64,000 nt of DNA from Promethearchaeota archaeon (GTDB lineage Archaea > Asgardarchaeota > Lokiarchaeia > Sigyniarchaeales > SOKP01): the NCBI GenBank assembly GCA_048937405.1, contig JBHLNF010000003.1:216624-280623 (forward strand). Reading direction: 5' to 3'. The position numbers were made by a program, and so were the translations under genes. Each line of letters begins with the position of its first letter. Position 1 is the first letter of the stretch. The notes beneath the pieces are model-generated. The model was not told the origin of the DNA and did not search any database. It saw only the letters and a program-made list of their open reading frames with translations. Shown piece by piece: positions 5,748-56,800 of this stretch.

Positions 5748-5884
5748 TTTTTAATCTTAAAAAGTTCGTTTTATAATGATTAAAATGAATTAAAGGCATT
5801 TTTTTTTTCTATTTAAATTCAATGGTTTAGAAAATTTTAAAATATCAAACTAAGATAATTTAATAAAAGTAGCTTTGATACAAA

Positions 5885-20711: not shown

Positions 20712-20853
20712 ACTATATTTTTTTAATTCTTTATTTTATTGTTTTATTAAAATAATAAAGATCTTTTTTAGAGAATTTTCTTCTTTTTTGTAAAAAAATA
20801 GGTATAAATATTGATATTTTTTTATCGTATTTAAAAAAATTTATGTGAAATTT

Positions 20854-21738
20854 ATGTTATTACAAAATATAGATGCCGAAATGGTATTTAATCTTCTAGT
20901 AGCTCCAGTACTCGCATGTAGTTTGCTTTTTGTTGCTTATTTGATACTACGAAAAAAAGGAAGAGGGATAAATTCCGCAGAGTTTAAGGTTATCTTCATG
21001 TTTCTTACAGCAATAGCGGTAATGGTAACCATTACAATATTAGTAAATGCAGTGTTTGAATATGGTGGTCTCCCTTTAATTTTTGGTTTTATCATAGGAA
21101 TCGGTTATATGTTATTTGGTTTATTTTACATCGGTAGGACGATTTATAGAGCAAATAATAAGATAAATAATTTATTAGAGAATGTAATCAAATCAAGCTC
21201 AGAAGTAGCTATCAATGTGGCTAACATTGCAGCAGAATTAGCGGCAAATGCTAGTGAGATAAATGCGTCATCCGAAGAGATCGCATCCTCTACAGCTGAA
21301 ACAACAAGCCTTACAGAAGGAATTATGAGAGCTTCAAGTGAAATAAATAATGTTAATGAACTAATTACAAACATAGCTGATCAAACAAATTTATTGGCGT
21401 TAAATGCCAGTATTGAAGCAGGTAGAGCTGGTGAACATGGGAGAGGGTTTGCGGTCGTAGCAGATGAAGTTCGAAAACTTGCAGAAGAATCAAAAAGAGC
21501 GGTGAGTAATACTGGCAGTAAGATTACAGATATAATAAAAAATATACAGCTTTCTTTTAATAATATGGAAGGAATAAGTTCGGCATCGGAACAACAAAGT
21601 GCTTCTATGGAAGAGATCACAGCAACTGCAAACAAATTAGGTATATTGGCAGAAGATTTAAAGGATACTCTGAAAGTATCAGATGAACCGACTAAGCAAA
21701 AAAAGAAAATCACCTTAAAAGCAATAAGGAAACATTAA
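20854..21738 (+). CDS. Minimal methyl-accepting chemotaxis protein (MCP-signal domain), copy 1
   Basis: Canonical MCP hairpin tip [39 protein letters not shown]. Three N-terminal hydrophobic helices, no HAMP. The ORF track starts at GTG 20845; ATG 20854 (MLLQN) matches the TTTATGTTATTACAA start context of copy 2. Confidence 0.85.
21181..21738 (+). repeat. MCP 3' cassette, copy 1 (near-identical DNA repeat)
   Basis: Starts at AATGTAATCAAATCAAGCTCAGAAGTAG. Aligns to 22752-23309 and 26313-26795 with only scattered mismatches. Confidence 0.85.
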
Positions 21739-22412: not shown

Positions 22413-23309
22413 ATGTTATTACAAGAAATACTTCTTTCCCGAGACCAAGAAATAATACTGTCCGAAATAATACAAACCATAGTTATTTTATCGTTGATGA
22501 TAGTTGCTTCACTTCTAATACTAAAAAGAATAAGAAAAGGAATAAAATCTCCTGAATTTAAGGTTGCTTTTATGTTTCTTTCATCGATTATGGTAATGAT
22601 AGTGATGGTAAAACTTATAGACTTTTTTGAAAAGACTGCTATAGCTCAAGCTTTTGGTTATGTCTTTGGAATTAGTTATATGATAGGGTGCCTATACTTA
22701 ATTATTAAAAGTACTATTAAAGCAAATAGTAAAGTGGATGATTTATCAGATAATGTGATCAAATCAAGCTCAGAAGTAGCTATCAATGTGGCTAACATTG
22801 CAGCAGAATTAGCGGCAAATGCTAGTGAGGTAAATGCGGCATCCGAAGAGATCGCATCCTCTACAGCTGAAACAACAAGCCTTACAGAAGGAATTATGAG
22901 AGCTTCAAGTGAAATAAATAATGTTAATGAACTAATTACAAACATAGCTGATCAAACAAATTTATTGGCGTTAAATGCCAGTATTGAAGCAGGTAGAGCT
23001 GGTGAACATGGGAGAGGGTTTGCGGTCGTAGCAGATGAAGTTCGAAAACTTGCAGAAGAATCAAAAAGAGCGGTGAGTAATACGGGCAGTAAGATTACAG
23101 ATATAATAAAAAATATACAACTCTCTTTTAATAATATGGAAGGAATAAGTTCTGCTGCCGAACAGCAAAGTGCTTCTATGGAAGAGATTACAGCAACTGC
23201 AAACAAATTAGGTACACTGGCAGAAGATTTAAAGGATACTCTGAAAGTAGCAGATGAACCGACTAAGCAAAAAAAGAAAATCACCTTAAAAGCAATAAGG
23301 AAATATTAA
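22413..23309 (+). CDS. Minimal methyl-accepting chemotaxis protein, copy 2
   Basis: Same MCP tip motif. The C-terminal ~185 aa are nearly identical to copies 1 and 3; the N-terminal membrane part is divergent. Confidence 0.85.
22752..23309 (+). repeat. MCP 3' cassette, copy 2
   Basis: See copy 1. Shares diagnostic substitutions with copy 3 ([20 protein letters not shown]), where copy 1 has [20 protein letters not shown]. Confidence 0.85.
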
Positions 23310-25976: not shown

Positions 25977-26882
25977 ATGATTTTTATGTTTCTACAGGGA
26001 TTTAGTGTTGAAGAAATTTCTTATCTTTTGTTTCCTGCGATAATTTTTTTTGTTTTGACGATTGGTTTTTATTTCTTCATCAAAAGAAGGGGAAAGGGGA
26101 TAAAATCTAAAGAATTCAAAATTATCATCATGTTCTTTAGTTCGGTTATGATTATGGTCTATATGACAGTAATTGGATTATTATGGTTTGCTGATAATGT
26201 GACAGTTCAATTAGTTGTCCAAATTATTGGAATTGGTTCTATAACAGCAGTTGCATTTATTATTATTAGAATTATTTACAACACGGATACTAAATTGGAC
26301 AATTTAGTGAATAATGTAATCAAATCAAGCTCAGAAGTAGCCATCAATGTAGCAAATATTGCAGCAGAATTAGCAGCAAATGCTAGTGAGGTAAATGCGG
26401 CATCCGAAGAGATTGCATCCTCTACAGCTGAAACAACAAGCCTTACAGAAGGAATTATGAGAGCTTCAAGTGAAATAAATAATGTTAATGAACTAATTAC
26501 AAACATAGCTGATCAAACAAATTTATTGGCGTTAAATGCCAGTATTGAAGCAGGTAGAGCTGGTGAACATGGGAGAGGGTTTGCGGTCGTAGCAGATGAA
26601 GTTCGAAAACTTGCAGAAGAATCAAAAAGAGCGGTGAGTAATACGGGCAGTAAGATTACAGATATAATAAAAAATATACAACTCTCTTTTAATAATATGG
26701 AAGGAATTAGTTCTGCTGCCGAACAGCAAAGTGCTTCTATGGAAGAGATTACTGCAACTGCAAACAAATTAGGTACACTGGCAGAAGGTTTGAAGGATTC
26801 TTTGAAAGCAGCAGAAGAATCACCAAAAAAAAAAAAGGCGACAAATATATTATCAAAAATTAAATCATCTAAAGAATATTAA
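25977..26882 (+). CDS. Minimal methyl-accepting chemotaxis protein, copy 3
   Basis: Same MCP tip motif and near-identical cassette 26313-26795. Divergent N-terminal membrane region and a different Lys-rich tail. An alternative ATG at 25986 (MFLQG) parallels copies 1 and 2. Confidence 0.85.
26313..26795 (+). repeat. MCP 3' cassette, copy 3
   Basis: See copies 1 and 2. Similarity ends after ..AACAAATTAGGTACACTGGCAGAAG. Confidence 0.85.
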
Positions 26883-26964: not shown

Positions 26965-27384
26965 TCATTTTTTATTTAGTCTTATTATAAAAGTATAACC
27001 TTTATTTCTTTCCTCAGATTCTACAATTTTTTGCCTACCGTATAAATCTACAATTTCTTTTGAGAGATATAACCCTAATCCATATCTTTCAATATCTACC
27101 CCCAAATCCAATCTATATCTCTCAATTTTTCCAAACTTTTCAAATAATTTTTCTTTTTCTTTCTTAGTTATTCCCACTCCAGTATCTTTTACCCAGATAT
27201 CAATATTTTCAGGATTTTCGATAAGATTAACTAAAATTTCACCTCCTTTTGGAGTGTTCTTCATTGTATTTGAAATAATATTTGAAATCATCTGTCTGAA
27301 ACTAATTTTATCTATCTCTATATAGATTTCACTTGTCATATCAAATTTCAATTTTAACTTACAATTAGCTGCTAAGTAGTTCAT
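26965..27384 (-). CDS. Stand-alone histidine-kinase ATPase (HATPase_c) domain, no HisKA/H-box (truncated or split kinase)
   Basis: N box ISNIISNTMKNTP, G1 DTGVGI, G2 YGLGLYL. Only 139 aa. The upstream 180 nt is non-coding-looking. Confidence 0.55.
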   Translation of the reverse strand: MNYLAANCKLKLKFDMTSEIYIEIDKISFRQMISNIISNTMKNTPKGGEILVNLIENPENIDIWVKDTGVGITKKEKEKLFEKFGKIERYRLDLGVDIERYGLGLYLSKEIVDLYGRQKIVESEERNKGYTFIIRLNKK

Positions 27385-28228: not shown

Positions 28229-28551
28229 ATAAGAAGATCTTTGGAAATCTTTTCCAAAAACTAATAACTTTTTACATTTAAGAGAAGAAATTAGGATCTA
28301 TATATTTAACCTTTTTATATCAGTTATTAACTTGCAATGAATTGAAAAATGATAGATTGTATTTTTTTAAGATGAATAGTTGTTAGATGCCTTATCGCAT
28401 CTCAATTTTTTACCAAAGAATTTTCTTTATTTTAATTATCCTCATTTTTTGACAAAAATATAAGTAATTGATTATCATAACTATCTTTGTCAGCTTAATG
28501 ACAATATAATTCATTTATAAGGTAATTTTTTTATTGTTTGAGGTAATTCTA

Positions 28552-30717
28552 ATGAGTTATGTAATATTAGATGAAGAAAAATATGATATAAAAGGAGGAA
28601 AACTAGATCTAAATTCTAAAAACATTGAAAATATAACTGAAATTAGAGGTTTAAAGACTTTTTCTGATTTACAGGTATTATATCTTAATAAAAACAAAAT
28701 AAAAGAGATTAATGGCTTAAAGCATTTAAATAAGTTGAAAGTGTTGGCCCTAAGTGATAATTTGATTACTGAAATAAAAGGTTTAGAATCAAATATTGAT
28801 CTAGAATGGTTGAATTTAAGAAGTAATCAAATTACTGAGCTTAGAAACCTAGCTTCATTAAGTAACTTAAAAATTTTAAACTTACGTGATAATAGAATTA
28901 CAGAGATTAAAGGATTAGAATCTTTAACTAATCTACAAGAATTAATTTTAACAGATAATCAAATTGCTGAAATTAGAGAACTACGCTATTTGTCAGATTT
29001 ACAAGAGATAGATTTAAAAAACAATTTAATTACTGAAATTAAAGGGTTGGAAAATCTTACTAAATTACAGCAGATTGATATGACGAATAATCAAATTTTT
29101 GAAATAAAAGGATTGGAAAATCTTACAAACTTGCAAGAATTAGTTCTTGCAGATAATAAAATTTCAGAAATTAAAGGGTTAGAAAATCTTACACGATTAC
29201 GAGTGCTAAACCTCAGCAATAATCAAATTACAGATGTTAGAGGGTTAGAATCTTTAACTAATTTAAAATTTTTGAATCTTAAAGGTAATCCAATTTCATA
29301 TAGATTGCTTAGAGAATTAGATGGTTTTGATCAAAAAGGAAATGCTAAAAAACCTCAAAAATTTGTAGAATATTGCCAATATAGATTGGAAGAGGAGAGG
29401 AAAAAAGTAGAAAGGATTTGGAACAATACCATTCAATACATTAAAAAGTCGAGTTCAATATATAGTGAAATAACATTAGATAAAATTAGTTCAAAAACAG
29501 GAATTCAATCAAAAAATTTAGAAAGTCTTATTGAGAATATGATTTATAATAAAGAGATAGATGCCCAAATCAGAGGAAATTTGCTAATTTTTAAAAAACA
29601 AGTAATAAAACCAAAACTAGAGCCTAAATTAGAAGAAATGCCGAAGTTATCTCAATTTTTAGATGAATCTATAAAAAAAAATGTTAAAGTTTTAAGGGGA
29701 GGAGATTGGAAAATTGAAGCAAACCAGAGTGTTTTTAATTATAAAGTAAAAATAAAAAACTTATCTAAGTATATTATTTCAGACATTCAAGTAATCTTTG
29801 GAGATATACCTCCAGGATTAGAATTAAGAATGGATAAATTAATCGAATTTTCAAAATTAAATCCTAATAGTGAGGTTGCCCCAACATATAAATTATATGC
29901 TACTGACAATTGTGTGGGAAGTGAAATAAAAGGTATCGTAAATTACAATGATCATTTTGGCCAAATGCACACAGTTCAAATAGAGCCATTTGAAATTTGC
30001 TATGTATGTAATTTACTTGTACCAAGGAGAGTATCTAGAGAGGAGTTTGAGAATACAATACAAAACATGGAAGGAAGGATTATGCATATAGATAGTAATA
30101 TGGATCCATATAAAATTGAGGCTCTTATTAAAAGAAAAATGGAAGAATGTAATTTTGCTTTGCTTAAAGAAATCACAGAAGCCCAACAAAATGGTTTTAG
30201 GAAAATCGAAGGATTAGCTCAAGGATTATATGATAAGCAAGATGTAGCTATATCAATTGCGATGAAAAAACTCGAGGAAGGTTCAGACATAGAAATAAAG
30301 ACTTTAAGTGATAAGGTGGAAAAAACAACTGATCTTTTAAAAGATATTAGTATTAAAATTGAAGACATAAAAAGTGATACTCAAAAAGTTCAAGATATTA
30401 TTTATTATTTGGATGAATCTAAAATCAGAGAAACTTTAAGTATTGTAATTGAAAATCCTAAAGATTTAAATAGAGTTATCTATAAAGTTATTAAAAATCC
30501 AAATTGGAGTGATGAAGAAAAAGATAAATGGGCTAAAATTGTTATGGAAACTCTCAATTATTACAAAATGTTTAAAACTCCGTTGTGGTTAAAATTCCTC
30601 AAAGGAATTACTAAAATCACATTAGGCGAACCAGCATCAAGAGCCATTACGGCTGGAGTGGAAGAATTAGTAGATTGGTTAAATTTAAAAATTGCTAAAC
30701 GGCATATTAATAAATAA
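28552..30717 (+). CDS. LRR protein: ~10 leucine-rich repeats + winged-helix module + unknown ~350-aa C-terminal domain
   Basis: Ten 22-aa repeats of type L..L..L.L..N.ItEIkGLE.L. WH-like segment ITLDKISSKTGIQSKNLESLIENMIYNKEIDAQIRGNLLIFKK. The ORF track starts at TTG 28534; ATG 28552 (MSYVILDE) is likelier. Confidence 0.8.
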   Translation: MSYVILDEEKYDIKGGKLDLNSKNIENITEIRGLKTFSDLQVLYLNKNKIKEINGLKHLNKLKVLALSDNLITEIKGLESNIDLEWLNLRSNQITELRNLASLSNLKILNLRDNRITEIKGLESLTNLQELILTDNQIAEIRELRYLSDLQEIDLKNNLITEIKGLENLTKLQQIDMTNNQIFEIKGLENLTNLQELVLADNKISEIKGLENLTRLRVLNLSNNQITDVRGLESLTNLKFLNLKGNPISYRLLRELDGFDQKGNAKKPQKFVEYCQYRLEEERKKVERIWNNTIQYIKKSSSIYSEITLDKISSKTGIQSKNLESLIENMIYNKEIDAQIRGNLLIFKKQVIKPKLEPKLEEMPKLSQFLDESIKKNVKVLRGGDWKIEANQSVFNYKVKIKNLSKYIISDIQVIFGDIPPGLELRMDKLIEFSKLNPNSEVAPTYKLYATDNCVGSEIKGIVNYNDHFGQMHTVQIEPFEICYVCNLLVPRRVSREEFENTIQNMEGRIMHIDSNMDPYKIEALIKRKMEECNFALLKEITEAQQNGFRKIEGLAQGLYDKQDVAISIAMKKLEEGSDIEIKTLSDKVEKTTDLLKDISIKIEDIKSDTQKVQDIIYYLDESKIRETLSIVIENPKDLNRVIYKVIKNPNWSDEEKDKWAKIVMETLNYYKMFKTPLWLKFLKGITKITLGEPASRAITAGVEELVDWLNLKIAKRHINK
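28612..29296 (+). repeat. 66-bp periodic coding repeats (LRR array)
   Basis: In-frame 22-codon periodicity. Recurrent ATTACTGAAATTAAAGGGTTAGAAAATCTTAC-like units. Confidence 0.8.
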
Positions 30718-30833: not shown

Positions 30834-33800
30834 TTATCTTAAGATTTCTTCATAGAGATTCTGGATAAATCCTTCGAAATCATCTTTAGTAAATTTAACA
30901 TTTAACATTTGCCATAGTAATCGAGGTATATGGTCTTCATCTTCATAAACAGGGATAATTTTCATCAGCCCTTTTTTAACCATTTGATATGCTGATTGCC
31001 ATTCACCTTTTACTGCATCAGATTTTATGGAATTTTCTGAGCAAAATAATACGAAAACATTAGTTTTTTTAAGAGTCTCTTCCATAAATTCTACGATATT
31101 TTGCTTGCTATCTACTTCCCAGAATAAGACCTGATCTATTTCAGGATATAATTCTAGTCGTCTAACAATTCTAGAAACTTGAAAGTAATCTGTGTCTAAT
31201 GTTGAATAACTTATGAAAACATTATGTTTTGCCATAATTTCTTCTTTAGGTATAAGTACTGCCGCTTCTAATGCCAGAGCTTTAGAGCTTGAAAAGTATT
31301 CACCTTGGATTTCTTTATTTTTAATCATATCTTGAATTACATTCTCAATTATAGTTTCATCTATTATACCGCTCTTTTCACTTATATCTACGAGTTGTAA
31401 ACGAGTAAATTTCGCCCCTAAGGTTAAGATTGTCTGCTTAATTCGATTAATTGTTTCTACTTGTGACTTTTTACAAATTAATATTTTTTCTTCAGCTGCA
31501 TTCACTAAGTCTATTAATTCAAAAGTCTGAGCTTCGTTTTGAATTTCTGTTAAATTTTCTATAGCTTTATCTAATTCATTCGCCTTAATTAGAGAATCTA
31601 CAAAAGACATTCTTTCTTGAAGTTCTTCTTCAGTTTTAGTTTTCTTTTCTTTAACTTTTTGTTCATCTATTTTAATCTGATAATATGCGATTGTAGTTTT
31701 AATTTGAGTTTTATTTGATTTTATTTTTTCTTTATATTCAATGAGATTATAATTTTTAACAATTTCTTTAGCTTCTTTAATTTGTTTTTGAGCTTGGTTT
31801 AAGGTCTCTATGGCATCACTATATTCTTGTTTCTGAGCAAACTTATTAGCCGTATCAATGAGGGATGTAGCTTTATTATAATATTTATCAACTTTTGCCT
31901 CTTGTTTAATCATTTCTTTAGTTTTTTTTTCAATGGGTGCTTCTGCGGATGGTTTCACTTTAGGAGGCTTCCTTTTCTTTGAAACAACAAGAAGACTTAC
32001 TAATATTAATCCTAAAATACCCACACTAACTACAATGATAATTAATACGAGGTAATTTTTACCGTCTCCAGGAGTACCTTTACTCAAGGTAAGAGGATCT
32101 ACGGCTAATTCGAGTTCAAAATATTTATCTGAATATCCGTTAGCAGAAATGGTCATATTTAACAAAATGGGCTCTTCTCCTGGTTCTACGGTTATCGGCT
32201 CAAAAGTTGTAAAATAGGTTCCCCCTCCAAGGTTTTGAACATTACTAGACACATCACTGCCATTCCACCACATCTGAAATGTTGCATCAGAAATTCCATG
32301 ATTAGTCTTATTATAGACAGAATAAGTAAGATTGAATTCGTCTAAAGAGAAATTAGAATCTGTCACTTCTATAAATAGATTCCTTTCTGGAGCCCATTGA
32401 CATGTATAGAAGTATGGCCAATTCAAAACATTCGGCAGAAATCCAGTTAAGGCAACGTGATGTGCAAAAATCACTTTTAAACAATATGCCCATACATGTG
32501 CAGAATCATTAATTAAAAGTTCTTGAATTCTGTCGTACATTACTTCTCTTGCAGGCCCGTCAGGGGTAATGAGCGCTTGTTCCATTAATAGCTGTACGTT
32601 ATCATTGATATTCTCAGGGTCTCTACCAGCATAACCTGCCTCTAAATATCCATCATATTGAGCAATATTAGAAGCTTCTGATCTATTGGTAAACAATGGA
32701 TTGATAAAGTCGCTAGCATCATTATAGTCAGGTCCCCAGCCAACAAGTAATAGCTCTAGATGATTTCTTGTATACCCGTTCCACTCGAACATTTTAGAGG
32801 TAAGAGTAATTAAATCACTCCCTGCATCCGTTACTCGAATTCCGATTTTCTTTAGATCTCTGATTAACATTGTATATACATCTTCTCGAAGTTCGGAGCC
32901 GATGTTATAAGAATAGTTAAAGGTTCTAAATGGAGAAGTCTCTGTTGCTGCAACCCATTCAGCGTCGTCATCTAGATTAAAGCCTTCCCCATATCCCATT
33001 GATTGCATTATTATTCTTGCCTTTGTTAAGTTATATATGGGAACAGGGAATGTCCAGTTGGAGTACTTAAAACCCATTGGAATAGGAGATTTCATTCTGA
33101 TGGCATAACCTAATTTGGTAGTATTAATCAGATAATCATAATTAAATGCATAAGAAATTGCTTCTCTCCATGTCCTATTTATCAGCATATTGTTCATTAC
33201 TAAGTATTGAAAAGTTCCACCAGTATCTCCAGTATTTATCACTGCTATGTCAGGATCATCTGTAAACATATCCACAAATTCTGCTACCGGGTCTTTTAAA
33301 AAGTGGATGTCCCCTGTTAATAATGCCGCATTTCTAGCATCCGGATCTTCAATTTCTGAAAAAACTAAATTATCAATGCCCCCCCAATATCCTCTCCAAT
33401 AATTATCATAAGCATGCAAGGTTACTTCGACATCCTCCTCATATGAATCATACACAAAAGGACCAGTTCCCACAACATCCCCATCAAGTTCAACAATACC
33501 GCCTGTTTCATTATAGTATGTGTCGGTCAATATGGATGAGGCCGTATAGCATAACAAGTCCTCGAAAGGCGCATAGACACCATTTAACTCAAACCTTACA
33601 GTATCACTATCTACTTTAACAACATCTTTTATAATTTGAGTACCATTAGGGTATACATATAATGATCTTACCAGGGGAATGCCGCCTGTATTAAGACCTG
33701 TGAAATTATACAACCAAGCTTGTCTATCAAAACTAAATACAACATCATCTGCGTCAAATGTGGAACCATCGTGGAAAGTGACACCAGTTCGGAGATTAAC

Positions 33801-34133
33801 AGTATAATTTGTGTGACTTACGTCCCAGGTACCCATTTCTGCGGCGAGTAGGGGCATGATCGGCAGAGTGGGATCGCTTAAAGTATAAGTAAATAATGTT
33901 TCCACAACCTGAAAGAGTACATCCATTGATGACTCATCCCAGCAATTTTGGGGATCAATTGTATTGAGTAAGTTCGGTACACCATAAACAAAGGGAATGC
34001 TCGCAGAATCTGCACTAAATAATAAACTTGAATCAATAGCATTTTTGCGATAATCTCTAAAATTAATGAAACCATTTGATAAAGAAAGTAATATTGTTAT
34101 AATTAAAAAAATTGTTTTATACTTTTTTTTCAT
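30834..34133 (-). CDS. Receptor-like membrane protein: signal peptide + SBP family-5 (peptide/nickel-type) ectodomain + Ig-like region + TM + coiled coil + WH + TIR domain
   Basis: MKKKYKTIFLIITILLSLS signal (ATG at 34133; the ORF track extends to 34205). SBP_bac_5-like blocks (DPQNCWDESSMDVLFQVVETLFTY, VTFHDGSTFDADDVVFSF, GTGPFVYDSY). TM YLVLIIIVVSVGILGLILVSLLVV followed by KKRKPPK. K/E-rich coiled coil. WH-like LQLVDISEKSGIIDETIIENVIQDMIKNKEIQG. TIR-like HNVFISYSTLD...VFVLFCSENSIKSDAVKGEWQ. Confidence 0.75.
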   Translation of the reverse strand: MKKKYKTIFLIITILLSLSNGFINFRDYRKNAIDSSLLFSADSASIPFVYGVPNLLNTIDPQNCWDESSMDVLFQVVETLFTYTLSDPTLPIMPLLAAEMGTWDVSHTNYTVNLRTGVTFHDGSTFDADDVVFSFDRQAWLYNFTGLNTGGIPLVRSLYVYPNGTQIIKDVVKVDSDTVRFELNGVYAPFEDLLCYTASSILTDTYYNETGGIVELDGDVVGTGPFVYDSYEEDVEVTLHAYDNYWRGYWGGIDNLVFSEIEDPDARNAALLTGDIHFLKDPVAEFVDMFTDDPDIAVINTGDTGGTFQYLVMNNMLINRTWREAISYAFNYDYLINTTKLGYAIRMKSPIPMGFKYSNWTFPVPIYNLTKARIIMQSMGYGEGFNLDDDAEWVAATETSPFRTFNYSYNIGSELREDVYTMLIRDLKKIGIRVTDAGSDLITLTSKMFEWNGYTRNHLELLLVGWGPDYNDASDFINPLFTNRSEASNIAQYDGYLEAGYAGRDPENINDNVQLLMEQALITPDGPAREVMYDRIQELLINDSAHVWAYCLKVIFAHHVALTGFLPNVLNWPYFYTCQWAPERNLFIEVTDSNFSLDEFNLTYSVYNKTNHGISDATFQMWWNGSDVSSNVQNLGGGTYFTTFEPITVEPGEEPILLNMTISANGYSDKYFELELAVDPLTLSKGTPGDGKNYLVLIIIVVSVGILGLILVSLLVVSKKRKPPKVKPSAEAPIEKKTKEMIKQEAKVDKYYNKATSLIDTANKFAQKQEYSDAIETLNQAQKQIKEAKEIVKNYNLIEYKEKIKSNKTQIKTTIAYYQIKIDEQKVKEKKTKTEEELQERMSFVDSLIKANELDKAIENLTEIQNEAQTFELIDLVNAAEEKILICKKSQVETINRIKQTILTLGAKFTRLQLVDISEKSGIIDETIIENVIQDMIKNKEIQGEYFSSSKALALEAAVLIPKEEIMAKHNVFISYSTLDTDYFQVSRIVRRLELYPEIDQVLFWEVDSKQNIVEFMEETLKKTNVFVLFCSENSIKSDAVKGEWQSAYQMVKKGLMKIIPVYEDEDHIPRLLWQMLNVKFTKDDFEGFIQNLYEEILR

Positions 34134-34715
34134 AAATTTGACCCTATTTTTTGTTATGATTATTTTAGATAGAAATGTATAAAAACATTTTTGTCTAAAT
34201 TTCAAAACTAGAAAGTTGACCTGAAAAAACCAACGTTAAGAGATTGAATCGTTAAGAGATTAAATAAAGAGAGACATAACTATTAATTTGTAGTTATTAC
34301 TGTAGGAGTGCAAATAGTAATAACCAATATCTGTCATATTTTTAAAATATATGGAAATATTTTCGAATCATTTACTGGACATCATTATTTATACTTTGCT
34401 TGTATTTTATTTTAGATATTGCAATATCTTTAATGTTTTAATATAGTTCACTTAAACAACTTACTGTTTTTTAAATTACTAAATCTACAATCTTAATAAC
34501 ATATTAAGAGAAGATTTTTAAAGAAATCTAAAGCAATTTAAAATGATAATTCAATATTGGTGGTGAAAAATGATGATTCATTGTCATGAAATGAAAGATG
34601 GAGATATATATAAAAGTAAATAATCAAATATAGAATGTTATGAATGGTGAAACTTTTATTATCTTATTTGAATTATAAATAATTAATTTAATTTTCAAAA
34701 CGAAAAAATAAGAAA

Positions 34716-39884: not shown

Positions 39885-40295
39885 GTGGTCAAAGCTATTC
39901 GAGATTTATGGATTCAAAGATTAGATGGAATTGTTATATTTAGTAGAGTTTTTCATCAAAAAATAGAAGATCAACTATTTGGAGCCCTCTTAAGCGCTCT
40001 TAATTCATTTACTCAGGAGATAGCTGATGGAGAATTGACCAATTTTGAGATAAAAAATATTCGCTTTACAATTATCAAAAGAGAAAACCTTTTCTTTATA
40101 GCAAATTCCTCAAAAAAACATAAAGAAAAGAAAATTTTAGCAGAATTGGAGACTATTGCTAAGAGATTCTTAGAACAATATCCTGAAACAAAAAATCATA
40201 ATTGGAATGGATGTATTGATGAATATAAAAACTTCGAAAGTAAAATCACGGATACTTTAGAAGATCCAGTTAAAAAATTCTGGGATGATTTTTAA
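39885..40295 (+). CDS. Small longin/roadblock-like domain protein
   Basis: GIVIFSRVF...DQLFGALLSALNSFTQEI...IRFTIIKRENLFFIANS...ILAELETIAKRFLEQY, a beta-beta-alpha-beta-beta-beta-alpha pattern by eye. GTG start. Confidence 0.35.
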   Translation: MVKAIRDLWIQRLDGIVIFSRVFHQKIEDQLFGALLSALNSFTQEIADGELTNFEIKNIRFTIIKRENLFFIANSSKKHKEKKILAELETIAKRFLEQYPETKNHNWNGCIDEYKNFESKITDTLEDPVKKFWDDF

Positions 40296-44041: not shown

Positions 44042-45082
44042 ATGAGTCAAAACCAGATATTGTGTGTTACTTACTTTGATCAAGTAATTGGCCCTAGTTT
44101 TCTTTATTCCAGTGAACCGTTAATTGAATCCATTGATATTCCCGATATTAATAGGATCCTTGAATTTAATGAAGAAGAAGGGACATTCATTTTTGCATAT
44201 AGAAAATATCAAACGGTAAATCATATTTTTTATATAGATTCTGATTTAGCACGAGGAGGAAGAGAATTAATGATGATTTCATATATGATCAAGACTGCTA
44301 TCTTTAAAGATGAAATTGTAGATGTTTTCAAGTATTTGGACTCGAAAGGACCAATTTTGGAGGATTTTGCCTTGGAGGTTAAAAATATAAAAGATCTAAC
44401 CTCCTTCTTACATGAGAAGAAGAGTGGGTTGACTGGTGATTTTTTGCTAGAACTCGCTAATAATAATTTAAAGAGCATATTTTTGGAAATTTTTAATAAA
44501 TACTTTGCAAAATTAGCTCCTAAATACCGATTAGAAACCCCAATTAAAGATAGACGTCTGATCAAGAAAATATTTATTGTTGGGGCTCCAAGAGTAGGAA
44601 AGACTACATTTTTGAAAAATATTGAATTAATTCAATTTTTGAATATAAAAAGAAATGATTTACCAAGTAGAATTTTTGAAGTAGTTGTTGAAAACATTGA
44701 TATCTTAGATTATGATCCTAATTCAAGTGAGTTTGAATGTAAGGAATTTGAAAATTTAGAAAACTGTGTAAATTTCTCACAAGGTTTTATTCTCCTTTTT
44801 GATTTATCTGATAAGCATTCAGCATTAAGAACAAAAGAAATTTTTCAAATTGTCGATAATACACGATTGGAAATGCAAAGACAATTAGCACCAATTTTAA
44901 TAATTGGAAATAAATTCCACAGTGAGAAAGAACTTGATCCAAAATTTATTAATGAAACCTTTGAAATTGAAAAATTAAAAGAACTTGGAGTTAAAATTAA
45001 TTATATTCCCATAAATATTTTGAAAGAAGATGAAAAAATGATGAATGCTTTACGATGGCTAATAATTAATATATTAGAGTAG
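44042..45082 (+). CDS. Longin/roadblock-like N-domain fused to a degenerate Ras-superfamily GTPase domain
   Basis: C-half: P-loop IVGAPRVGKT. No DxxGQ (has DILDYDP). NKxD replaced by GNKFH. No SAK. N-half has an ILCVTYFDQVIGPS.. mixed alpha/beta pattern. Confidence 0.5.
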   Translation: MSQNQILCVTYFDQVIGPSFLYSSEPLIESIDIPDINRILEFNEEEGTFIFAYRKYQTVNHIFYIDSDLARGGRELMMISYMIKTAIFKDEIVDVFKYLDSKGPILEDFALEVKNIKDLTSFLHEKKSGLTGDFLLELANNNLKSIFLEIFNKYFAKLAPKYRLETPIKDRRLIKKIFIVGAPRVGKTTFLKNIELIQFLNIKRNDLPSRIFEVVVENIDILDYDPNSSEFECKEFENLENCVNFSQGFILLFDLSDKHSALRTKEIFQIVDNTRLEMQRQLAPILIIGNKFHSEKELDPKFINETFEIEKLKELGVKINYIPINILKEDEKMMNALRWLIINILE

Positions 45083-45830: not shown

Positions 45831-46919
45831 ATGTCTGTCGAATATGGTGGGCAGTTTTTTAAAGTTATTAATAAAAAAAGTTCGCTAATTCTTGATTTAA
45901 GTAATCAAGGAATAAGAGATATATCTGAAATTAAGGGGCTTGATAATCTTGTAAATTTAAGATATCTTAATCTTAATAAAAATCAAATTACTGAAATTAA
46001 GGGTCTCGATAATCTAAGGATATTAGAGACTTTATCACTAGAAAACAATAATATTTCCGAGATTAAAGGTCTTGATAATTTAAATTTATTACAGCATCTG
46101 TTACTCAATGGAAATAATATTACTGAGATTAAAGGTCTTGGTAATCTTTCAAGTTTAAAGAGAATTGAACTACAAGATAATCCAGTTAGGGCTTCTGCAA
46201 AAGAGATGTTTGGAAGATATTGGTCAAATCCACAACCTATGGTAAAATATTGTCAACAAAAGGTTCCAGAGATTAGAGAACATGAAAAAGTTAAAAAATC
46301 AAAAGAAGAAACAATTCAATACCTCAAAAATTTACCATCTATATATGAGGAAATAACATTTGAAGAAATTAGCTTAAAAACAGGCTATAGTAAAAGAGAA
46401 CTTAAGGCTTTAACTGAAGATTTAATTTTAAAAGGAGATATACCAGGGTCAATTAGAGAAAATATTATAATATTTAAGAAAGAATTATTAACGGAAGCTC
46501 TGCAAGAAGAAACTATTCCCATAGAAAAACAAAGTAAAAAAATTTTTGTAAGTTATGCTACAAAAGACGCGGAATTATTCAAAATAAAGGAAATCGCAAA
46601 AGGTCTTAGAATTTATGATGAGATAGAGGAGGTTCTTTATTATGAAGCAGAATCATATGATAATTTTGTTAAATATATGAACGATAATCTCGGTAGATGT
46701 GATGTGGTACTCCTATTTTGCTCTCCAAATTCATTAGAATCTGGACCAGTTGAAAAAGAGTGGACTGCTGCGGATGCAATGAACAAACCTATTATTCCAG
46801 TATTTATAAGAGCGGATCATATTCCTCCACTTTTAAAATCAAGGTTAGGTGTTGAATTTGATACTTTTAATATGGAAAAAAATATTGAAGAGATTTATAG
46901 GATAATAATGAAAAGATGA
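45831..46919 (+). CDS. LRR (4 repeats) + winged-helix module + C-terminal TIR domain protein
   Basis: LRRs N.ItEIKGLDNL..L. WH-like ITFEEISLKTGYSKRELKALTEDLILKGDIPGSIRENIIIFKK. TIR-like KKIFVSYATKD...CDVVLLFCSPNSLESGPVEKEW...PIIPV. Confidence 0.75.
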   Translation: MSVEYGGQFFKVINKKSSLILDLSNQGIRDISEIKGLDNLVNLRYLNLNKNQITEIKGLDNLRILETLSLENNNISEIKGLDNLNLLQHLLLNGNNITEIKGLGNLSSLKRIELQDNPVRASAKEMFGRYWSNPQPMVKYCQQKVPEIREHEKVKKSKEETIQYLKNLPSIYEEITFEEISLKTGYSKRELKALTEDLILKGDIPGSIRENIIIFKKELLTEALQEETIPIEKQSKKIFVSYATKDAELFKIKEIAKGLRIYDEIEEVLYYEAESYDNFVKYMNDNLGRCDVVLLFCSPNSLESGPVEKEWTAADAMNKPIIPVFIRADHIPPLLKSRLGVEFDTFNMEKNIEEIYRIIMKR

Positions 46920-49912: not shown

Positions 49913-52105
49913 TTAAAGATTTAATTTTTGTTTCCATATTTTCATAGATAATTTTAATTCTTCTCTTTCTGGTCGACTTAAGATTTCAGGATTGCTTTTA
50001 AGTTCAGTGCTAGTAGAATGAATACTTTTCAATATACTACTATAACCTTCCAATTTAACAAATTCATTTTGAAATCTTTCTAATGCTAATGAGATTTCTG
50101 TACCGGTCATATTATCCATATTGTTAACAATTTCATCAAATTTATTTGATAAAATTACCGCCTTAGGTGCTTCAGTTGTGTCTTTTTCTTCAGGAGGAGT
50201 AACACCTTCTTTAGGGGGAATAGTAATTGCTGGTGTCGATACAAAAGGTTCTTCTTTTAATGGTTCTTCCAAACCAGGTTTTTTTATAGTTCGAATGATT
50301 TCTTTTCGAGCTCCTACCCAAGCATCTTCAAGTATGGGGACAAAAATTTTGATATGCTCCTCAATTATACTCCCAATTCCAGCAATTTCTGTCACATCTT
50401 CTCCTCGAAATTCTGTTTTTGAAAGCACACAAAGGATAACTTCTTCATAGTCTTTATTAATCCCCCATAAATTTTGTAAAGCTCGATTTCTATAATCAAC
50501 GTTATCCATCTTATCCATTTCTTGCATAATTTGATTATGTTCATAACTTGTCGTATCTATATATGTAGCAATTCTGAAGTTTATTCGGGATGGTCTGGCT
50601 TTAATTGCTTCAATATCAATATCAGAAAGATTTGGTGCTACTATTAAAACTCGCATCTTGGCTTTTAATATTTCCTCAGTTATGTGAGCTTTCGCACTTT
50701 CTGGAGAACGAATAAACCAGATATCTTTCATAGTGAAACCCCTCTTACCTTTAGCTTGATCCCAAAATTCTCTAGTGGTTATTTCGCTGACTTCTAACCT
50801 TCTCAAAATATCCGATAGTGTATTATCTAGTGTATCCACAATTCCTTTTGAGAAAATATCTCTAATATTACCAAATGATTGAAATATACCTCCAGAAAGG
50901 CCATCAATTCTTTCTTCAGCTAACTTTACTGCTTTATTAAAATTATCAGAAATTTCTCCAAAAACTTTCTCTTTATCTTCCCCTGATTTAGCAGTTATAC
51001 TTTCGACATTTTTAACCGCATCTGTTAATGAGTCTTTCATTTTTGCTATAATTTCTGTATTAATTCCTTCTGTTGCTTTTTTTAACTCATCAGCGAAAAC
51101 TGTTTGACTTACACTCAATTGAACGTTAAGATTATCGGTAATATCTTTTAAACGATTTTCAATAACTTTATCAATTACATCACCTACAGCTTGTTGAATT
51201 ACTCCTAAACGTAATTTCTGTAAATTATCCGTTACTGTTTTTTTAATATCCCCAAATTGATTTTTTAGATCAGCAACTTGATTTCTGATTATTTGAGATG
51301 TTTTCGTATTAAGATTTTCAAATTGTTTTGTTAAAGAGCTAATTTGATCATCTGGGAGAGTTTTAGAAAGATCTCCTAACTGAGAAATATCTTCAGTTAT
51401 ATTTCTTATTTGATCGATTGCTGAAATAGTATCATCAAATTCTTTTTGTTGAGCGTGGATTTGAGAGAGCATTTTTTCCTTTAAATCTGACATTATCTCA
51501 GTAGAATCTTTAACTTTTTCCATATCTTGTGCTTCTGTTTCAAGTTGAGCAAAGGATTTTTCTAACTGCTTAGGTATAGTGGATTTTATATCTGAGATAT
51601 ATGAATAAAAATTCTTTAATTGTGCTATTAGAGCCGCGTATGGAGGTAAAGCTTGATAGTGAGGAGTTGCACCAATAATTTCCTTGAATAACCCTTTTTC
51701 AAGAAATTTATCTGCAATTTTTTTACATTCTTCTTTAGGTTTGTTAATGAGAATCGCCATTTCTCCAATAGAAACTGCCTCTCGTCCAGTGGTTCGAAAA
51801 TATAGCTCAATTTCTTCATCTGAAAGATCTATTTCACTTAAAACTTGTCTGGTTAACTCTTTTGAATATTCAACTTGCTCTTCCTTTTCTATAACATCTT
51901 TTATTTCAAAATTCTCAACTTCTAAATATTGATTTATAAAGACTGTTAATTTATGAGGTGGCTCACCATGAACATCCTCTTTTTTAATTGGAAACTTTTT
52001 TATATCTCTGTATTGATCAACCGAAATTGGAAATTTGATTTCTTTTAAACAGATTTTACATGTAACTGCAACATCAACTACATCTTTATCTTTAAATAAG
52101 TACAT
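49913..52105 (-). CDS. TrmB-like wHTH protein with a ~300-aa inserted coiled coil and TrmB-C/PLD-like C-domain
   Basis: LSDEEIELYFRTTGREAVSIGEMAILINKPKEECKKIADKFLEKGLF (TrmB-type wHTH). Long heptad region. C-terminal MRVLIVAPNLSDIDIEAIK.. block. N-terminal CKIC..H motif. Confidence 0.45.
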   Translation of the reverse strand: MYLFKDKDVVDVAVTCKICLKEIKFPISVDQYRDIKKFPIKKEDVHGEPPHKLTVFINQYLEVENFEIKDVIEKEEQVEYSKELTRQVLSEIDLSDEEIELYFRTTGREAVSIGEMAILINKPKEECKKIADKFLEKGLFKEIIGATPHYQALPPYAALIAQLKNFYSYISDIKSTIPKQLEKSFAQLETEAQDMEKVKDSTEIMSDLKEKMLSQIHAQQKEFDDTISAIDQIRNITEDISQLGDLSKTLPDDQISSLTKQFENLNTKTSQIIRNQVADLKNQFGDIKKTVTDNLQKLRLGVIQQAVGDVIDKVIENRLKDITDNLNVQLSVSQTVFADELKKATEGINTEIIAKMKDSLTDAVKNVESITAKSGEDKEKVFGEISDNFNKAVKLAEERIDGLSGGIFQSFGNIRDIFSKGIVDTLDNTLSDILRRLEVSEITTREFWDQAKGKRGFTMKDIWFIRSPESAKAHITEEILKAKMRVLIVAPNLSDIDIEAIKARPSRINFRIATYIDTTSYEHNQIMQEMDKMDNVDYRNRALQNLWGINKDYEEVILCVLSKTEFRGEDVTEIAGIGSIIEEHIKIFVPILEDAWVGARKEIIRTIKKPGLEEPLKEEPFVSTPAITIPPKEGVTPPEEKDTTEAPKAVILSNKFDEIVNNMDNMTGTEISLALERFQNEFVKLEGYSSILKSIHSTSTELKSNPEILSRPEREELKLSMKIWKQKLNL

Positions 52106-53858: not shown

Positions 53859-56800
53859 ATGACATCTAAAATAATTAAAAGAAAGGATTTTTCAGTTTTT
53901 AGTATTATTTGTATGATCATGTTATCATCCTTATTCATTTTATTAATATATACTAATCAGAATATTGATTCATCTTTTAATGATAAAAATAAAGAATCTG
54001 AATATAACAATTTTAGAAATCCTCAAATGTCAACAGCTAAAGAGAATCTTACTGCGATATGGTATAAGAATCCTGGTTTTGATGATCCAATTGAACCAAC
54101 ATGGTATTCAAAATTTGAAGGTGACCAATCAGATATAAATGCAACTTCTGGTTCTGGTCAAGCAAATTATGAGATTCTAGGTGAGACGAGAACTTACTCT
54201 CGAATAAACGGCACACCAACGTCGACATATTGGAAGAATGTTACAAATCCCGAACGTCCCGCTTTACCTGATTTTAATGAAATCGATAATTATGGTTGTC
54301 ATGTATCTCATACTTGGATAGATCCTGACGATCCTTCTCAGATGGTAAGTGTACATTGGGATAGAAATATTACTTTACCAGTTGATATGTCAGATTATTT
54401 TATTACCTCAGTTTCATTAAGTGCAGAAGTAAATGCTACAGTTACCACTGTTGGCAGTGGTCCTCTTTATCGAGGTGGTGTAGACGTTGCTGGTGATAGT
54501 ATTGATACAGCTAGCCCTGATTTTGCAAAAGAATATGATTATGTAAGGTTTTATGTATTGATTTCAGATTTAGAAAAAAATGATGTATTTGAAGCGGCTT
54601 ATAATCAAACAACTAACCTAGGGCAAGACCCAGTTCCAGGTCCGAGTATCCCTAGTATATCAGATACAGTAATTTTTACAAGACCAGAAGAAAGTTTAAT
54701 ATCATTTTTAAATACTGTTTTAGAGAATGATCCTAACCATGAATCATTTACATTGTCATTAGGAATGAGAATATTTTGTGCTGATAATGGACAAGGTGAT
54801 CGAGATACATGGGACTCGCTTCGATTTAAATCTTGCAATTTTTCATTTACTTATGAGAAAAAGATTGATGAATTTACGACTGGATCATGGTGTCAAGATG
54901 GAGATAAAATAACTCAGGTCGTTAATGACACATATGTTACTATTAATGATGCGAAATTGAATTTTAAGTATAAAATAAATGAAGATTGGACCGATTTATC
55001 TCCAAACTCAGAAATTAGAATTTATATAAATAACAATAAACTTCCTGAGGTACTTAATCTTAGTAAAGCTACTACAAGCTTTCAATTAGCTAATAACCTA
55101 GGAGGTTTCGATGTATATGATATTATTAACTATGATATTTACCTAAATCTCTCTATTCAAGTTTATCTTGCAGAGAATTTTCATTTAGGCACTAAGAAGA
55201 TTATATCGATAGATGATGTTTATTTGAATATTTCCTATACAGTTGAATTTCCCGAATATCAAACAGATATTGAAGTATATTTTAATAATAACAATATAAC
55301 AGCCAATCCTATATTCGAAATATCAGCTAAGACAGACCTAAATATCACAATTAAATATCCTGATGAATTTGGGATTCATATTCCTCAAGCAGTTGTAAAT
55401 TTAATTGGAAATTTAACAGCTACCTTAATTGAGGATGATCTCCGAGGACAATATACAATTATTCTCAATACTGAAGATTTACCTATAGGACAAATATACT
55501 TTAATATGTTAGCACACAGAATAAACTATGAAGCTCAACAGCTTGGTGCCCTATTAATTATTTCTAAAATAGAGACAGAAAAGATACAGTTATTTATAGA
55601 TGGCGAAGAAAAGACAACTTTACCATCTGTGGACGTTCCTCTGCAAAAGTCATTAAATATAACAGTTAAATATAAAGATACCATAGGAGATCATGTTCCT
55701 GGTGCAACAATTCAATTAGTTGGCGATGGAGTATTTGAAAATTTAGATGAATCTTTAGAATTTGAGCAATATTCAATAATACTTAATACAACATTGAAGT
55801 TTAGATTAGGTCTTAATGATTTATCAATCAATGCTCAAAAAGATAGATATGAGGAACAAAGTGCATATCCAAAAATTACGGTACGAAAGATCAATACCCT
55901 AATTACACCCGTTTCTGGCTCCAATAATATAAATATTAAGCCAGGACAGAATGCGGATATTAGTGTAATTATTAATGATGCAGACTTTAATGAAACCATT
56001 AAAGGAGCAATAGTTACTTATACTTGGGAATTTGGAAATGGTATTTTAACTGATGATAATAATGATGGTATATATGAGGAAATTTTAGAAAATGTACCTT
56101 CTGGTACGCATTCAGTTAATATTACCGTTTATAAAAGCGATATTTATAATTTTGAAAGTTATGAATTCATAATCTATGCTTTGAGACCAAAACAGGATTT
56201 ACTTCTTTTCCAAATATTATTGATAATAGGTATTATAGTTTCAATAGGAATAGGAGGTTATCTTTATGCATATCAAAAAGTATTAAAATATCCTAAACAA
56301 GTCAGAAAAGTTCGTAAGTATCGAAAAACCCTAAATAAAAAACATGCACCTAATATTAGTATAAATGACCGTGAAAAAAGTTTTAATTCTGAGTATAAAC
56401 AAGAAGTAAAAAATTCATCAAAATTTATAAGAGGTAAACCTTCAATTAAAAAACCTGAAGAAAGTGGAAAACAAAAAAAAAAATCGGAAAAATCTGACAT
56501 AAAGCTAGGATCTAAAAATGAGGTCGACTCAAATATAAAAATGAGTGATGTAAATCTCAATAACCAAAAATCATATCATAGAAAAACTTTAAAAAGGCTA
56601 AGAAAATTAAAGTTTGGAATTCTTAAATTAAAAAAATTCCAAAAATTCATGTCAATTTTAATAATAACAATTTTACTATTCAATTTTCTTATTGTTAGTC
56701 ATTATCTCTACCAAAATTCAAAAAATTCATTCTATTCCCAAAAAGATGATTTTAAAGATAATCTTGGTATATCAGGACAAAAGATTTATAGTAATATACA

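Follow-up and report, generated by a model that had tools for sequence, protein, structure and literature searches.

We analysed a stretch of 64,000 nt of DNA (hereafter, the window) from a Promethearchaeota archaeon, namely positions 216,624–280,623 of the forward strand of contig JBHLNF010000003.1 in assembly GCA_048937405.1. The window is AT-rich, with a GC content of 26–36%. Our target is a gene on the minus strand, whose product combines a family-5 solute-binding protein (SBP) domain, a transmembrane (TM) helix, a PCI-like helical module and a C-terminal TIR domain (Table 1), and belongs to a large family of Asgard archaeal proteins. A first-pass annotation of the sequence had placed an open reading frame (ORF) at 30834–34205; we found it uninterrupted at the same coordinates, with 1123 amino acids (aa) counted from a TTG codon. 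An identical protein is deposited at NCBI (P0001; 1099 aa, on a 329-kb contig) under the title 'MAG: ABC transporter substrate-binding protein [Promethearchaeota archaeon]', where MAG stands for metagenome-assembled genome, and its model begins at the ATG of codon 25. A TATA-like TTTTTATAC box lies ~45–50 nt 5′ of this ATG. Because the box fits an archaeal promoter, the ATG at 34133 is the probable true start of the target gene. The gene is arranged tail-to-tail with a leucine-rich repeat (LRR)-PCI gene at 28534–30717 (116-bp gap) and divergently from a ferredoxin gene at 34716 (510-bp gap); by this layout, it is monocistronic.

Table 1. Features of the target gene and its product, in window positions. 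AF2, AlphaFold2; pLDDT, predicted local distance difference test score.
Feature	Position	Strand	Evidence
Target ORF, stop codon included	30834..34205	(-)	TTG start, 1123 aa
Probable ATG start (codon 25) and signal peptide or signal anchor MKKKYKTIFLIITILLSLSNGFINFR	34056..34133	(-)	Hydropathy, P0001 start, TATA-like box
Predicted extracellular cluster-C solute-binding domain (SBP_bac_5, DppA/GsiB-like), aa 60-610	32376..34028	(-)	Pfam, PDB sequence match, AF2, Foldseek
Membrane-proximal ~107-aa beta-rich stalk, aa 611-717	32055..32375	(-)	pLDDT <50, no Pfam match, conserved with P0002
Sole transmembrane helix YLVLIIIVVSVGILGLILVSLLVV, aa 718-741	31983..32054	(-)	Hydropathy, AF2
Basic juxtamembrane stretch (SKKRKPPKVKP) and K/E-rich alpha-helical repeat region, five helices, aa 742-932	31410..31982	(-)	AF2 pLDDT >90, hairpins
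Predicted PCI-type winged helix, aa 933-982	31260..31409	(-)	AF2, Foldseek COP9 chains B/C, Pfam PCI in homologues
Predicted cytoplasmic C-terminal TIR domain, aa 993-1123, ending in the family-typical ...LYEEILR	30837..31229	(-)	TIR_2, Foldseek
Glu1068 codon, at the position of the TIR NADase catalytic Glu	31002..31004	(-)	Alignment with AbTir E208 and TcpO E279; Cat1 WCWDEL

The Pfam family SBP_bac_5 spans aa 116–509 of the target (E=3.8e-63). The closest solved structures by sequence were E. coli DppA (E=7e-30), HbpA and GsiB/YliB, and among the NCBIfam models the ectodomain was nearest to SapA, DppA, GsiB and NikA, with all scores far under the equivalog cutoffs. In the full-length AF2 model (88-row alignment, mean pLDDT 83.7), the SBP body was predicted with pLDDT >90. 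GsiB/YliB, GbpA and DppA superposed on this body in Foldseek with TM-scores of 0.90, 0.85 and 0.80–0.86, respectively, and the modelled SBP body is therefore a complete two-lobe cluster-C binding protein, in agreement with the first-pass assignment to SBP family 5. DppA R355 and D408, which we take to hold the carboxylate and amino termini of the bound dipeptide, were paired in the alignment with an Arg and an Asp of the target, located in SPFRTF and GWGPDYND. A peptide-like ligand is softly hinted at for the SBP domain.

The segment between the SBP domain and the membrane had been described as Ig-like, a description that we could not confirm. This stalk was modelled with pLDDT <50, is beta-rich by eye only, and matched no Pfam family even at E≤1. 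A Kre9_KNH Ig-like domain follows the SBP domain in the relatives P0017, P0018 and P0014 (at the equivalent position in P0017 and P0018), and no similarity was detected between the stalk and these three domains. The stalk is conserved between the target and P0002, the closest relative of its ectodomain. The two are 65% identical in amino acids and 74% in nucleotides over the stretch that begins at the 5′ end and stops short of the TM helix; P0002 itself terminates seven residues after its TM helix.

Hydrophobic segments were defined by a Kyte-Doolittle mean >1.6 over 19 residues. The target contains only two, aa 29–50 and aa 718–741. The first is preceded by a K-rich n-region and was confirmed as a signal peptide or signal anchor, in line with the N-terminal signal proposed earlier; the second is the single TM helix followed by a basic stretch (SKKRKPPKVKP), also as proposed. 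The ectodomain (aa 51–717) carries 16 N-x-S/T sequons versus 6.5 expected from composition, and the cytoplasmic part carries 2 versus 2.0 expected. Among 50 type-I members of the family, sequons occurred at 1.59 times the expected frequency outside and 0.50 times inside, and Lys plus Arg averaged 1.0 over the 15 residues preceding the TM helix, compared with 5.9 following it. Because the enrichment of sequons outside and the positive-inside rule concur in the target and in the family, these sequence features place the TIR domain in the cytoplasm, with a predicted type-I topology. Hydropathy, sequons and charge thus agree that the C-terminus is inside.

Behind the membrane, the first-pass annotation had recognised a ~200-aa coiled coil and a winged-helix (WH)-like module. 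The region aa 743–932 is indeed alpha-helical; however, aa 758–932 form five packed helices of high confidence (pLDDT >90) in the full-length model, continuous into the WH, and not one long coiled coil. The WH itself was present in the AF2 model at aa ~933–982 and appears to be of the PCI type. A separate AF2 model of aa 866–1123 (56-row alignment, pLDDT 89.6) consisted of a helical hairpin, a long helix, the WH, a short linker and a five-stranded flavodoxin-like domain. The helical and WH part matched chains B and C of the COP9 signalosome in Foldseek (E~8e-4, with low TM-scores of 0.15–0.23); although the search output names the complex only, these chains are presumably the PCI subunits CSN2 and CSN3. 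The Pfam PCI family (PF01399) did not match the target itself, and it matched 8 of the 56 homologues (best E=1.2e-4), as well as the neighbouring LRR protein (E=1.5e-7) and LRR-PCI-TIR relatives. Since the helices pack and run into the WH, the fold matches COP9, and Pfam PCI is found in homologues, the modelled region is most readily interpreted as a PCI-like module for oligomerisation, made of helical repeats and a winged helix; oligomerisation is a function of PCI domains (PMC10936438). A BLAST comparison of the juxtamembrane helical region with the helical hairpin revealed no significant internal repeat, and a homology search with the helical and WH module alone returned one fragment, which was uninformative as to other attached outputs.

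The C-terminal domain matched TIR_2 (PF13676) at aa 996–1113 with E=1.6e-14 and 54.9 bits versus a cutoff of 28, covering profile positions 1–118 of 122. PF01582 did not match the target, and it matched 22 of 56 relatives weakly (best E=1.5e-6). Fold comparison was required because searches against PDB sequences gave nil or marginal TIR matches, the single-sequence phmmer search returning only a marginal one to Cat1 (E=0.034). The best Foldseek match of the TIR model was SPARTA TIR-APAZ (E=8e-5); others were TLR2 (E=1.4e-4), Hydra TRR-2 (TM-score 0.77), AbTir (0.75), MyD88, MAL, ThsB and Cat1. The Foldseek probability was 1.00 for the TIR domains of SPARTA, TLR2, TRR-2, MyD88, AbTir and ThsB, with TM-scores of up to 0.77. 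Profile and structure searches thus gave significant matches to SBP_bac_5 at the N-terminus and to TIR_2 at the C-terminus.

Glu1068, the residue that the first-pass annotation had singled out in its TIR-like domain, is indeed kept. It aligned on AbTir E208 and TcpO E279, whose sequences and numbering were taken from the supplement of PMC10022894, and it coincides with the Cat1 motif WCWDEL. Of 191 TIR segments from the family, 98% retain this Glu, and S999, Y1000, D1004, W1029, S1062 and W1069 are conserved similarly. The NADase activities of AbTir and of the archaeal TcpO both need this Glu (PMC10022894). From its sequence, the target TIR may be an NADase as well.

Searched on its own against 1.84 billion representatives clustered at the 50% identity level, the target TIR retrieved 752. 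E was <1e-30 for 123 of these, and in most the TIR domain occupies the extreme C-terminus of a long protein. TM segments precede the C-terminal TIR in ~85 of 190 proteins of this TIR subfamily; a signal, a 500–1700-aa ectodomain, one TM helix and a TIR domain were found together in ~40, and the other forms include multi-TM proteins, cytosolic WH-TIR proteins and tandem TIRs (2–4 copies). Further cytosolic relatives are LRR-PCI-TIR, TIR-LRR and TPR-TIR proteins. TIR_2 was present in all 39 long receptors sampled. Their ectodomains were NosD/Beta_helix in 34 and SBP_bac_5 in 3, and a few had beta-propellers, PKD, FG-GAP, Peripla_BP_6 or fn3. In the GTDB species genomes, 71 of 74 loci were from Asgard archaea (Promethearchaeota/Loki, Thor, Hermod, Hod, Odin and Hel), and the remaining three were weak matches. 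The family is Asgard-restricted, with the same cytoplasmic cassette, made up of a basic juxtamembrane stretch, helical repeats, a PCI-like WH and a TIR domain, placed behind interchangeable ectodomains. Single MAGs carry several such genes, at least seven in H3B.172 and at least eight in DZ3M.111.

The family TIR has the signature FxSYSTxD...WExDS...CSxNSxxSxAVxxEWQ...EILR and is preceded by the helical and WH module and the TM helix, a description that the target fits. Residues 866–1123 of the target were 60–79% identical to the best full-coverage relatives and 40–84% across 55 matches; for the TIR alone, identity to the closest representatives reached 88%. A search of other genomes for the same architecture found SBP5 (SBP_bac_5), TM helix, helical-PCI module and TIR together in the independent MAGs of P0178, P0188, P0010, P0011 and P0066. 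In P0178 (102-kb contig), 373 aa of the cassette are 66% identical to the target, KKRKPPKPKP included, and the SBP5 ectodomain is only 25% identical. P0010, P0011 and P0066 combine SBP5 with beta-helix ectodomains in front of the same TIR, and P0066 also has Peripla_BP_6. Two metagenomic proteins, P0022 and P0026, consist of an SBP5 domain 48% identical to that of the target, one TM helix, a ~200-aa unmatched region and a TIR_2 domain of a different clade, which was not retrieved by the target TIR and still carries KEW. Because P0178, P0010, P0011 and P0066 share the SBP5-TM-TIR combination and P0022 and P0026 use another TIR clade, the combination is recurrent and, judging from these sequences, arose at least twice. 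The target is a minority SBP5 variant of a large family, not a one-off.

Soluble members of the subfamily and other arrangements of its genes were seen both in the window and elsewhere. A gene at 45831–46919 (+), 12 kb from the target, encodes a 362-aa cytosolic protein in which ~five LRRs (LRR_4 E=3.5e-14) are accompanied by a PCI-like winged helix and, at the C-terminus, a TIR of the same subfamily (TIR_2 E=2.2e-14). This TIR is 39% identical to that of the target (tblastn E=1.3e-27) and keeps the Glu (EKEW), and proteins of the LRR-PCI-TIR type are also encoded in further Asgard MAGs (L045, L053, L048). Locus L011 (1–20008, Promethearchaeota MAG DZ3M.111) contains five TIR genes on one strand, of which the 1460-aa one lies at the contig start; two other genes follow, then adjacent TIR genes of 506, 995, 986 and 979 aa, and then a RelA_SpoT-TPR-SLOG-like gene. 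In L048 (1298–10558, MAG 9R3_44), one LRR-PCI-TIR gene (827 aa) stands beside three TIR-LRR genes (451–590 aa), which have an N-terminal TIR and C-terminal LRRs, that is, the reversed domain order of the same TIR subfamily. In L012 (415–8229) and L013 (1409–8521), giant ORFs of 2400–2600 aa lie directly upstream of 4TM-helical-WH-TIR genes. The one in L012 matches Sialidase-like CBM and Big_13. The giant proteins are probably secreted, and these loci may represent a split receptor, whose extracellular and membrane-TIR proteins are encoded by separate genes.

The codon composition of the target gene is uneven. The GC content at third codon positions (GC3) is 0.30 in the ectodomain-coding part (32055–34055, minus strand) versus 0.17–0.23 elsewhere, and it is ~0.20 in the cytoplasmic part and in ten other genes of the window. 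The ectodomain part has 167 GC-ending codons versus 102.8 expected from local codon usage after correction for amino acids (z=7), the cytoplasmic part does not deviate (z=0.2), and the change coincides with the TM helix. Such an anomaly was absent from 18 other family genes. Moreover, the exact target protein is a singleton on one contig, and the exact gene record was not found. All this could be explained by an in-silico chimera in which an SBP gene was joined to the TM-TIR gene of another population. Nevertheless, the atypical segment is internal and the genes on both flanks have the same low GC3, so that a chimera would take two in-frame breakpoints. The architecture also recurs in the five independent MAGs named above, and the ectodomain gene of P0002 has a raised GC3 (0.25) within an AT-rich contig. 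We give this explanation almost no credence, and a chimeric assembly was rejected as unlikely. Since both flanks are normal and the P0002 gene is also GC3-raised, the step suggests a cassette exchange by recombination, or a trait of this SBP clade, rather than a misassembly.

The genes around the target encode GNAT, MCP-signal proteins, a HATPase_c fragment, the LRR-PCI protein, ferredoxin, SDR and GAPDH. The first-pass annotation had noted that no ABC permease or ATPase gene is adjacent; this holds for the entire window, in which no such gene and no ORF with an LSGGQ signature were found. The only polytopic protein among the window ORFs is an MFS transporter. At 365–3337 (+), the window encodes a 990-aa gingipain-like cysteine protease (Peptidase_C25 E=1.5e-79, plus propeptide) with N- and C-terminal hydrophobic segments, which is consistent with an extracellular enzyme; it fits peptide scavenging and is a possible source of SBP5 ligands.

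These data bear on the view that the target is an anchored SBP that feeds an ABC importer encoded elsewhere, its tail reporting on or regulating transport (a 'transceptor') or merely localising the protein. The ectodomain has a complete, high-confidence fold that is closest to the transport proteins DppA, GsiB and GbpA, and the ligand-termini residues of DppA align in it. P0002 consists of an SBP and a TM anchor only, more than 100 Loki SBP5 paralogues have TM or Loki-CTERM anchors, the NCBI name is that of a transporter component, and the gingipain-like protease would suit peptide uptake. On the other hand, besides the lack of permease and ATPase genes in the 64 kb, the 380-aa cassette is strongly conserved and common to receptors with non-transport ectodomains. 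The apparent origin of SBP5-TM-TIR fusions on at least two occasions, with different TIR clades, argues that the link from SBP to TIR is itself selected. We therefore consider an anchored transport SBP distinctly unlikely.

A second view holds that the target is an antiviral or anti-invader sentinel, in which variable ectodomains act as tripwires or decoys and a TIR NADase triggers abortive infection or growth arrest by a Thoeris- or SARM1-like NAD+ collapse. It would agree with the near-universal Glu at the NADase position (98%), with the numerous paralogues per genome and the tandem array of five in L011, and with ectodomains that are highly diverse in front of TIR domains that are 60–88% identical. 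The cytosolic LRR-TIR and TIR-LRR relatives look like pattern-recognition proteins, and a TM-TIR system of DefenseFinder was reported as enriched in Asgard genomes (Leao et al. 2024). However, a PADLOC scan of the target and five neighbours at E≤0.01 gave no match beyond two weak ones on the HATPase_c fragment. The target itself had no model match, and no known defence system was assigned to it. For Rst_2TM_1TM_TIR, there was no PADLOC match at E≤0.01 (the presence of the exact model in PADLOC v2 was not checked), and the immediate neighbours are the LRR-PCI and ferredoxin genes. In the case of Thoeris, ThsB_TIR scored only 15.8–19.5 bits versus the cutoff of 21.2, and the window contains no ThsA-like gene. 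The flanks are housekeeping (ferredoxin, SDR, GAPDH) or signalling (MCP, LRR) genes and not a defence island, no partner effector is adjacent, and no relatives of the cassette were found on viral contigs. An SBP5 peptide-binding fold would also be odd for virus sensing. Taken together, a sentinel role is unlikely in our opinion.

On balance, we lean towards the target being a type-I receptor from an Asgard multigene family, with a TIR output that is switched by an extracellular ligand via PCI-like oligomerisation. The SBP domain would capture a small peptide-like ligand outside the cell, acting independently of transport, and either the closure of the domain or ligand-dependent clustering would be transmitted across the membrane. 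The PCI-like module would then change its oligomeric state and bring the TIR domains together. Activation by oligomerisation is a general principle of TIR domains. Two outputs can be envisaged: the assembled TIR domains could cleave NAD+ via Glu1068, giving a signal or NAD+ depletion, or they could form homotypic assemblies with the LRR-PCI-TIR and tandem-TIR proteins of the cytosol, which belong to the same TIR subfamily. The likeness to the Toll-like receptor (TLR) and interleukin-1 receptor (IL-1R) layout claimed in the first-pass annotation stands for the ectodomain, the single TM helix and the cytoplasmic TIR, as judged by domain, fold and topology, whereas the function as a receptor is what we infer from them.

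Several points weigh against this receptor reading. The profile of the cytoplasmic module retrieved no solved TIR among the PDB sequences (zero matches at E≤0.01), and the target family is thus a divergent TIR clade. AbTir and TcpO have a Trp four positions upstream of the Glu (WxxxE), where the target has Ala and relatives have Pro, Ser or Ala. For TIR catalysis, keeping the Glu is necessary and not sufficient, and the non-enzymatic TIR domains of animal TLRs also keep it. The search for conserved neighbours, in which 841 ORFs from the 74 loci were clustered, found no general partner: no neighbour family occurred in more than 9 loci under strict coverage, or ~10 with L011. The exact pairing of ectodomain and cassette in the target has one database occurrence. 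Its closest ectodomain relative, P0002, is a plain TM-anchored SBP, so the target ectodomain could still serve a transporter encoded elsewhere. Lastly, adhesin-like beta-helices as the main ectodomain of the family suggest surface roles other than small-ligand sensing.

Part of this evidence would also suit a structural organiser without signalling, with the PCI-like and TIR domains as lattice modules that cluster surface proteins on the envelope or on protrusions. PCI and TIR are both assembly domains, 34 of the 39 sampled ectodomains are adhesin-like parallel beta-helices, and neither a conserved downstream partner nor the AbTir/TcpO-type Trp is present. Yet the catalytic-position Glu and the pocket motifs (SYsTxD, WExDS) are near-invariant, which is hard to square with a pure scaffold, and the same TIR occurs in soluble LRR, TPR and tandem-TIR proteins that have nothing to cluster at the surface. 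We find such an organiser highly improbable.

The receptor reading can be extended to an Asgard Toll-like, outside-in TIR network, with dozens of type-I receptors per lineage whose ectodomains are swappable (beta-helix, SBP5, propeller), cytosolic LRR-PCI-TIR and tandem-TIR proteins co-assembling with them via PCI and TIR contacts, and an effector responding to a nucleotide signal, in which the SBP5 member would sense extracellular peptides. We regard this extension as somewhat doubtful; if true, receptor-coupled TIR signalling would predate eukaryotes. The candidate effector is the commonest neighbour of the family, a ~856-aa RelA_SpoT-TPR-SLOG-like protein (L006 7011–9602; also L008, L009, L011, L012, L013, L014, L023, L040 and L056). 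Its RelA_SpoT domain (E=4e-11) is similar to the small alarmone synthetase YwaC and is accompanied by TPR repeats; the SLOG/LSDAT match scored 24.0 bits versus a cutoff of 25.4 and was not confirmed by a PDB sequence search. Where a TIR gene is present, the gene lies 250–680 bp downstream of it on the same strand (convergent in L040), these TIR genes having different architectures, and most of these loci are one syntenic block beside lysine-fermentation genes. It is absent from the 64-kb window. The SLOG domain of Thoeris ThsA senses a cyclic ADP-ribose isomer made by TIR, which makes the protein attractive as a possible downstream sensor or effector, to be taken as a lead and not as evidence.

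Other genes of the window deserve a brief description. The gene at 28534–30717 (+), next to the target, encodes a 727-aa cytosolic protein with ~ten LRRs, the PCI winged helix mentioned above and a ~380-aa C-terminal region without family match. It has the LRR and PCI front end of the LRR-PCI-TIR protein, with another output. Chemoreceptor-like signalling genes are clustered upstream of the LRR and TIR genes. They comprise two paralogues at 22413–23309 (+) and 25977–26882 (+), whose ~300-aa products each combine an MCP signalling domain (E~5e-30) with three hydrophobic segments, a probable third paralogue at 20845–21738 (+), and nearby a 139-aa HATPase_c-only ORF at 26965–27384. Three tandem Walker A ORFs of ~175 aa each occupy 4479–6421 (+), the first of which belongs to the Ras family (E=5.8e-48). 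A longin-domain protein is encoded at 39885–40295 (+), and the 346-aa product of the gene at 44042–45082 (+) has an Arf-like GTPase domain at its C-terminus. The Ras-family, Arf-like GTPase and longin genes are typical Asgard eukaryotic-signature genes. Two long ORFs matched no Pfam family at E≤1e-4; the one at 53859–59321 (+) spans 1820 aa and has four hydrophobic segments, and the one at 49913–52105 (-) spans 730 aa.

The first-pass annotation had stated that no described family has this architecture. We found no description of Asgard transmembrane TIR receptors, SBP-TIR fusions or a PCI-TIR cassette in the literature searched; the target nevertheless belongs to a large Asgard family. The archaeal TIR NADase TcpO and the TIR-domain annotations of some relatives in NCBI were already known, and Leao et al. 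(2024) reported only the DefenseFinder TM-TIR system as enriched in Asgard genomes. New here is a putative sensor that combines a TIR output with a binding domain outside the cell and a PCI-like coupler.

TIR domains are common to the innate immunity of animals, plants and bacteria. Receptors in which one membrane span links a TIR domain to a ligand-binding domain outside the cell have so far been regarded as an animal invention (TLR/IL-1R), and, to our knowledge, the characterised prokaryotic TIR systems are all cytoplasmic sensors. The Asgard archaea, to which eukaryotes are more closely related than to any other known prokaryotes, possess the receptor layout described here and have diversified it. 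It is built from prokaryotic binding modules and a PCI-like assembly domain, and soluble LRR-PCI-TIR proteins share its cassette. Should the family prove to signal, it would offer a tractable system for studying how a ligand outside the cell controls the assembly or the NADase activity of TIR domains. It would also supply candidates for the surface sensing of peptides, viruses or partner cells by organisms that depend on syntrophic contacts, and new data on the origin of eukaryotic TIR signalling. If it does not signal, the NCBI annotation 'ABC transporter substrate-binding protein' is still corrected.

The target shares a TIR_2-type domain and the catalytic-position Glu with prokaryotic TIR NADases and defence TIRs (AbTir, TcpO, ThsB, SPARTA, Cat1). 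Those proteins are soluble and triggered inside the cell, whereas the target has an extracellular sensor-type domain. It also differs from defence TIRs in having neither a ThsA, Ago or CARF partner nearby nor a PADLOC match, and from AbTir and TcpO in lacking the Trp of WxxxE. With the family-5 SBPs (DppA, GsiB/YliB, GbpA, OppA, NikA), it has in common the full two-lobe cluster-C fold; unlike them, it is encoded outside a transporter operon and continues into a C-terminal TM anchor and a 380-aa cytoplasmic cassette.

In BvgS-type kinases, class C G-protein-coupled receptors, ionotropic glutamate receptors and natriuretic peptide receptors, a Venus-flytrap domain is joined through the membrane to a cytoplasmic output. 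The target resembles all of these receptors in that a binding-protein fold is coupled through the membrane, and its relative P0066 also carries Peripla_BP_6; the target differs in that the output is a TIR domain and not a kinase, cyclase, channel or G-protein coupling, and in that the SBP is of family 5. The helical repeats followed by a winged helix are reminiscent of PCI proteins (COP9 signalosome, 26S proteasome lid, eIF3). In those proteins, however, the module is part of a subunit of a soluble complex, and in the target and its relatives it is a linker within a membrane receptor or an LRR sensor. Archaeal proteins with a PCI-type winged helix have been noted by Makarova et al. (2024).

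As in TLR/IL-1R, a signal peptide, a large ectodomain of the ligand-binding type, a single TM helix and a cytoplasmic TIR follow one another, and the family has many genes, in which the TIR is conserved and the ectodomain varies. The same genomes also encode soluble TIR-only or TIR-repeat proteins, which are possible adaptors, again as for TLR/IL-1R. The ectodomains of TLR/IL-1R are LRR or Ig, whereas that of the target is SBP5 (beta-helix in most relatives) without an LRR match. Unlike in TLRs, a PCI-like helical and WH module is inserted between the TM helix and the TIR of the target. Its TIR is situated at the extreme C-terminus and is of the TIR_2 type rather than PF01582, and, unlike for TLR/IL-1R, we know of no Death-domain adaptors for the Asgard family. 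Beyond the TIR domain, no sign of common descent with TLR/IL-1R was seen, and the resemblance is probably convergent.

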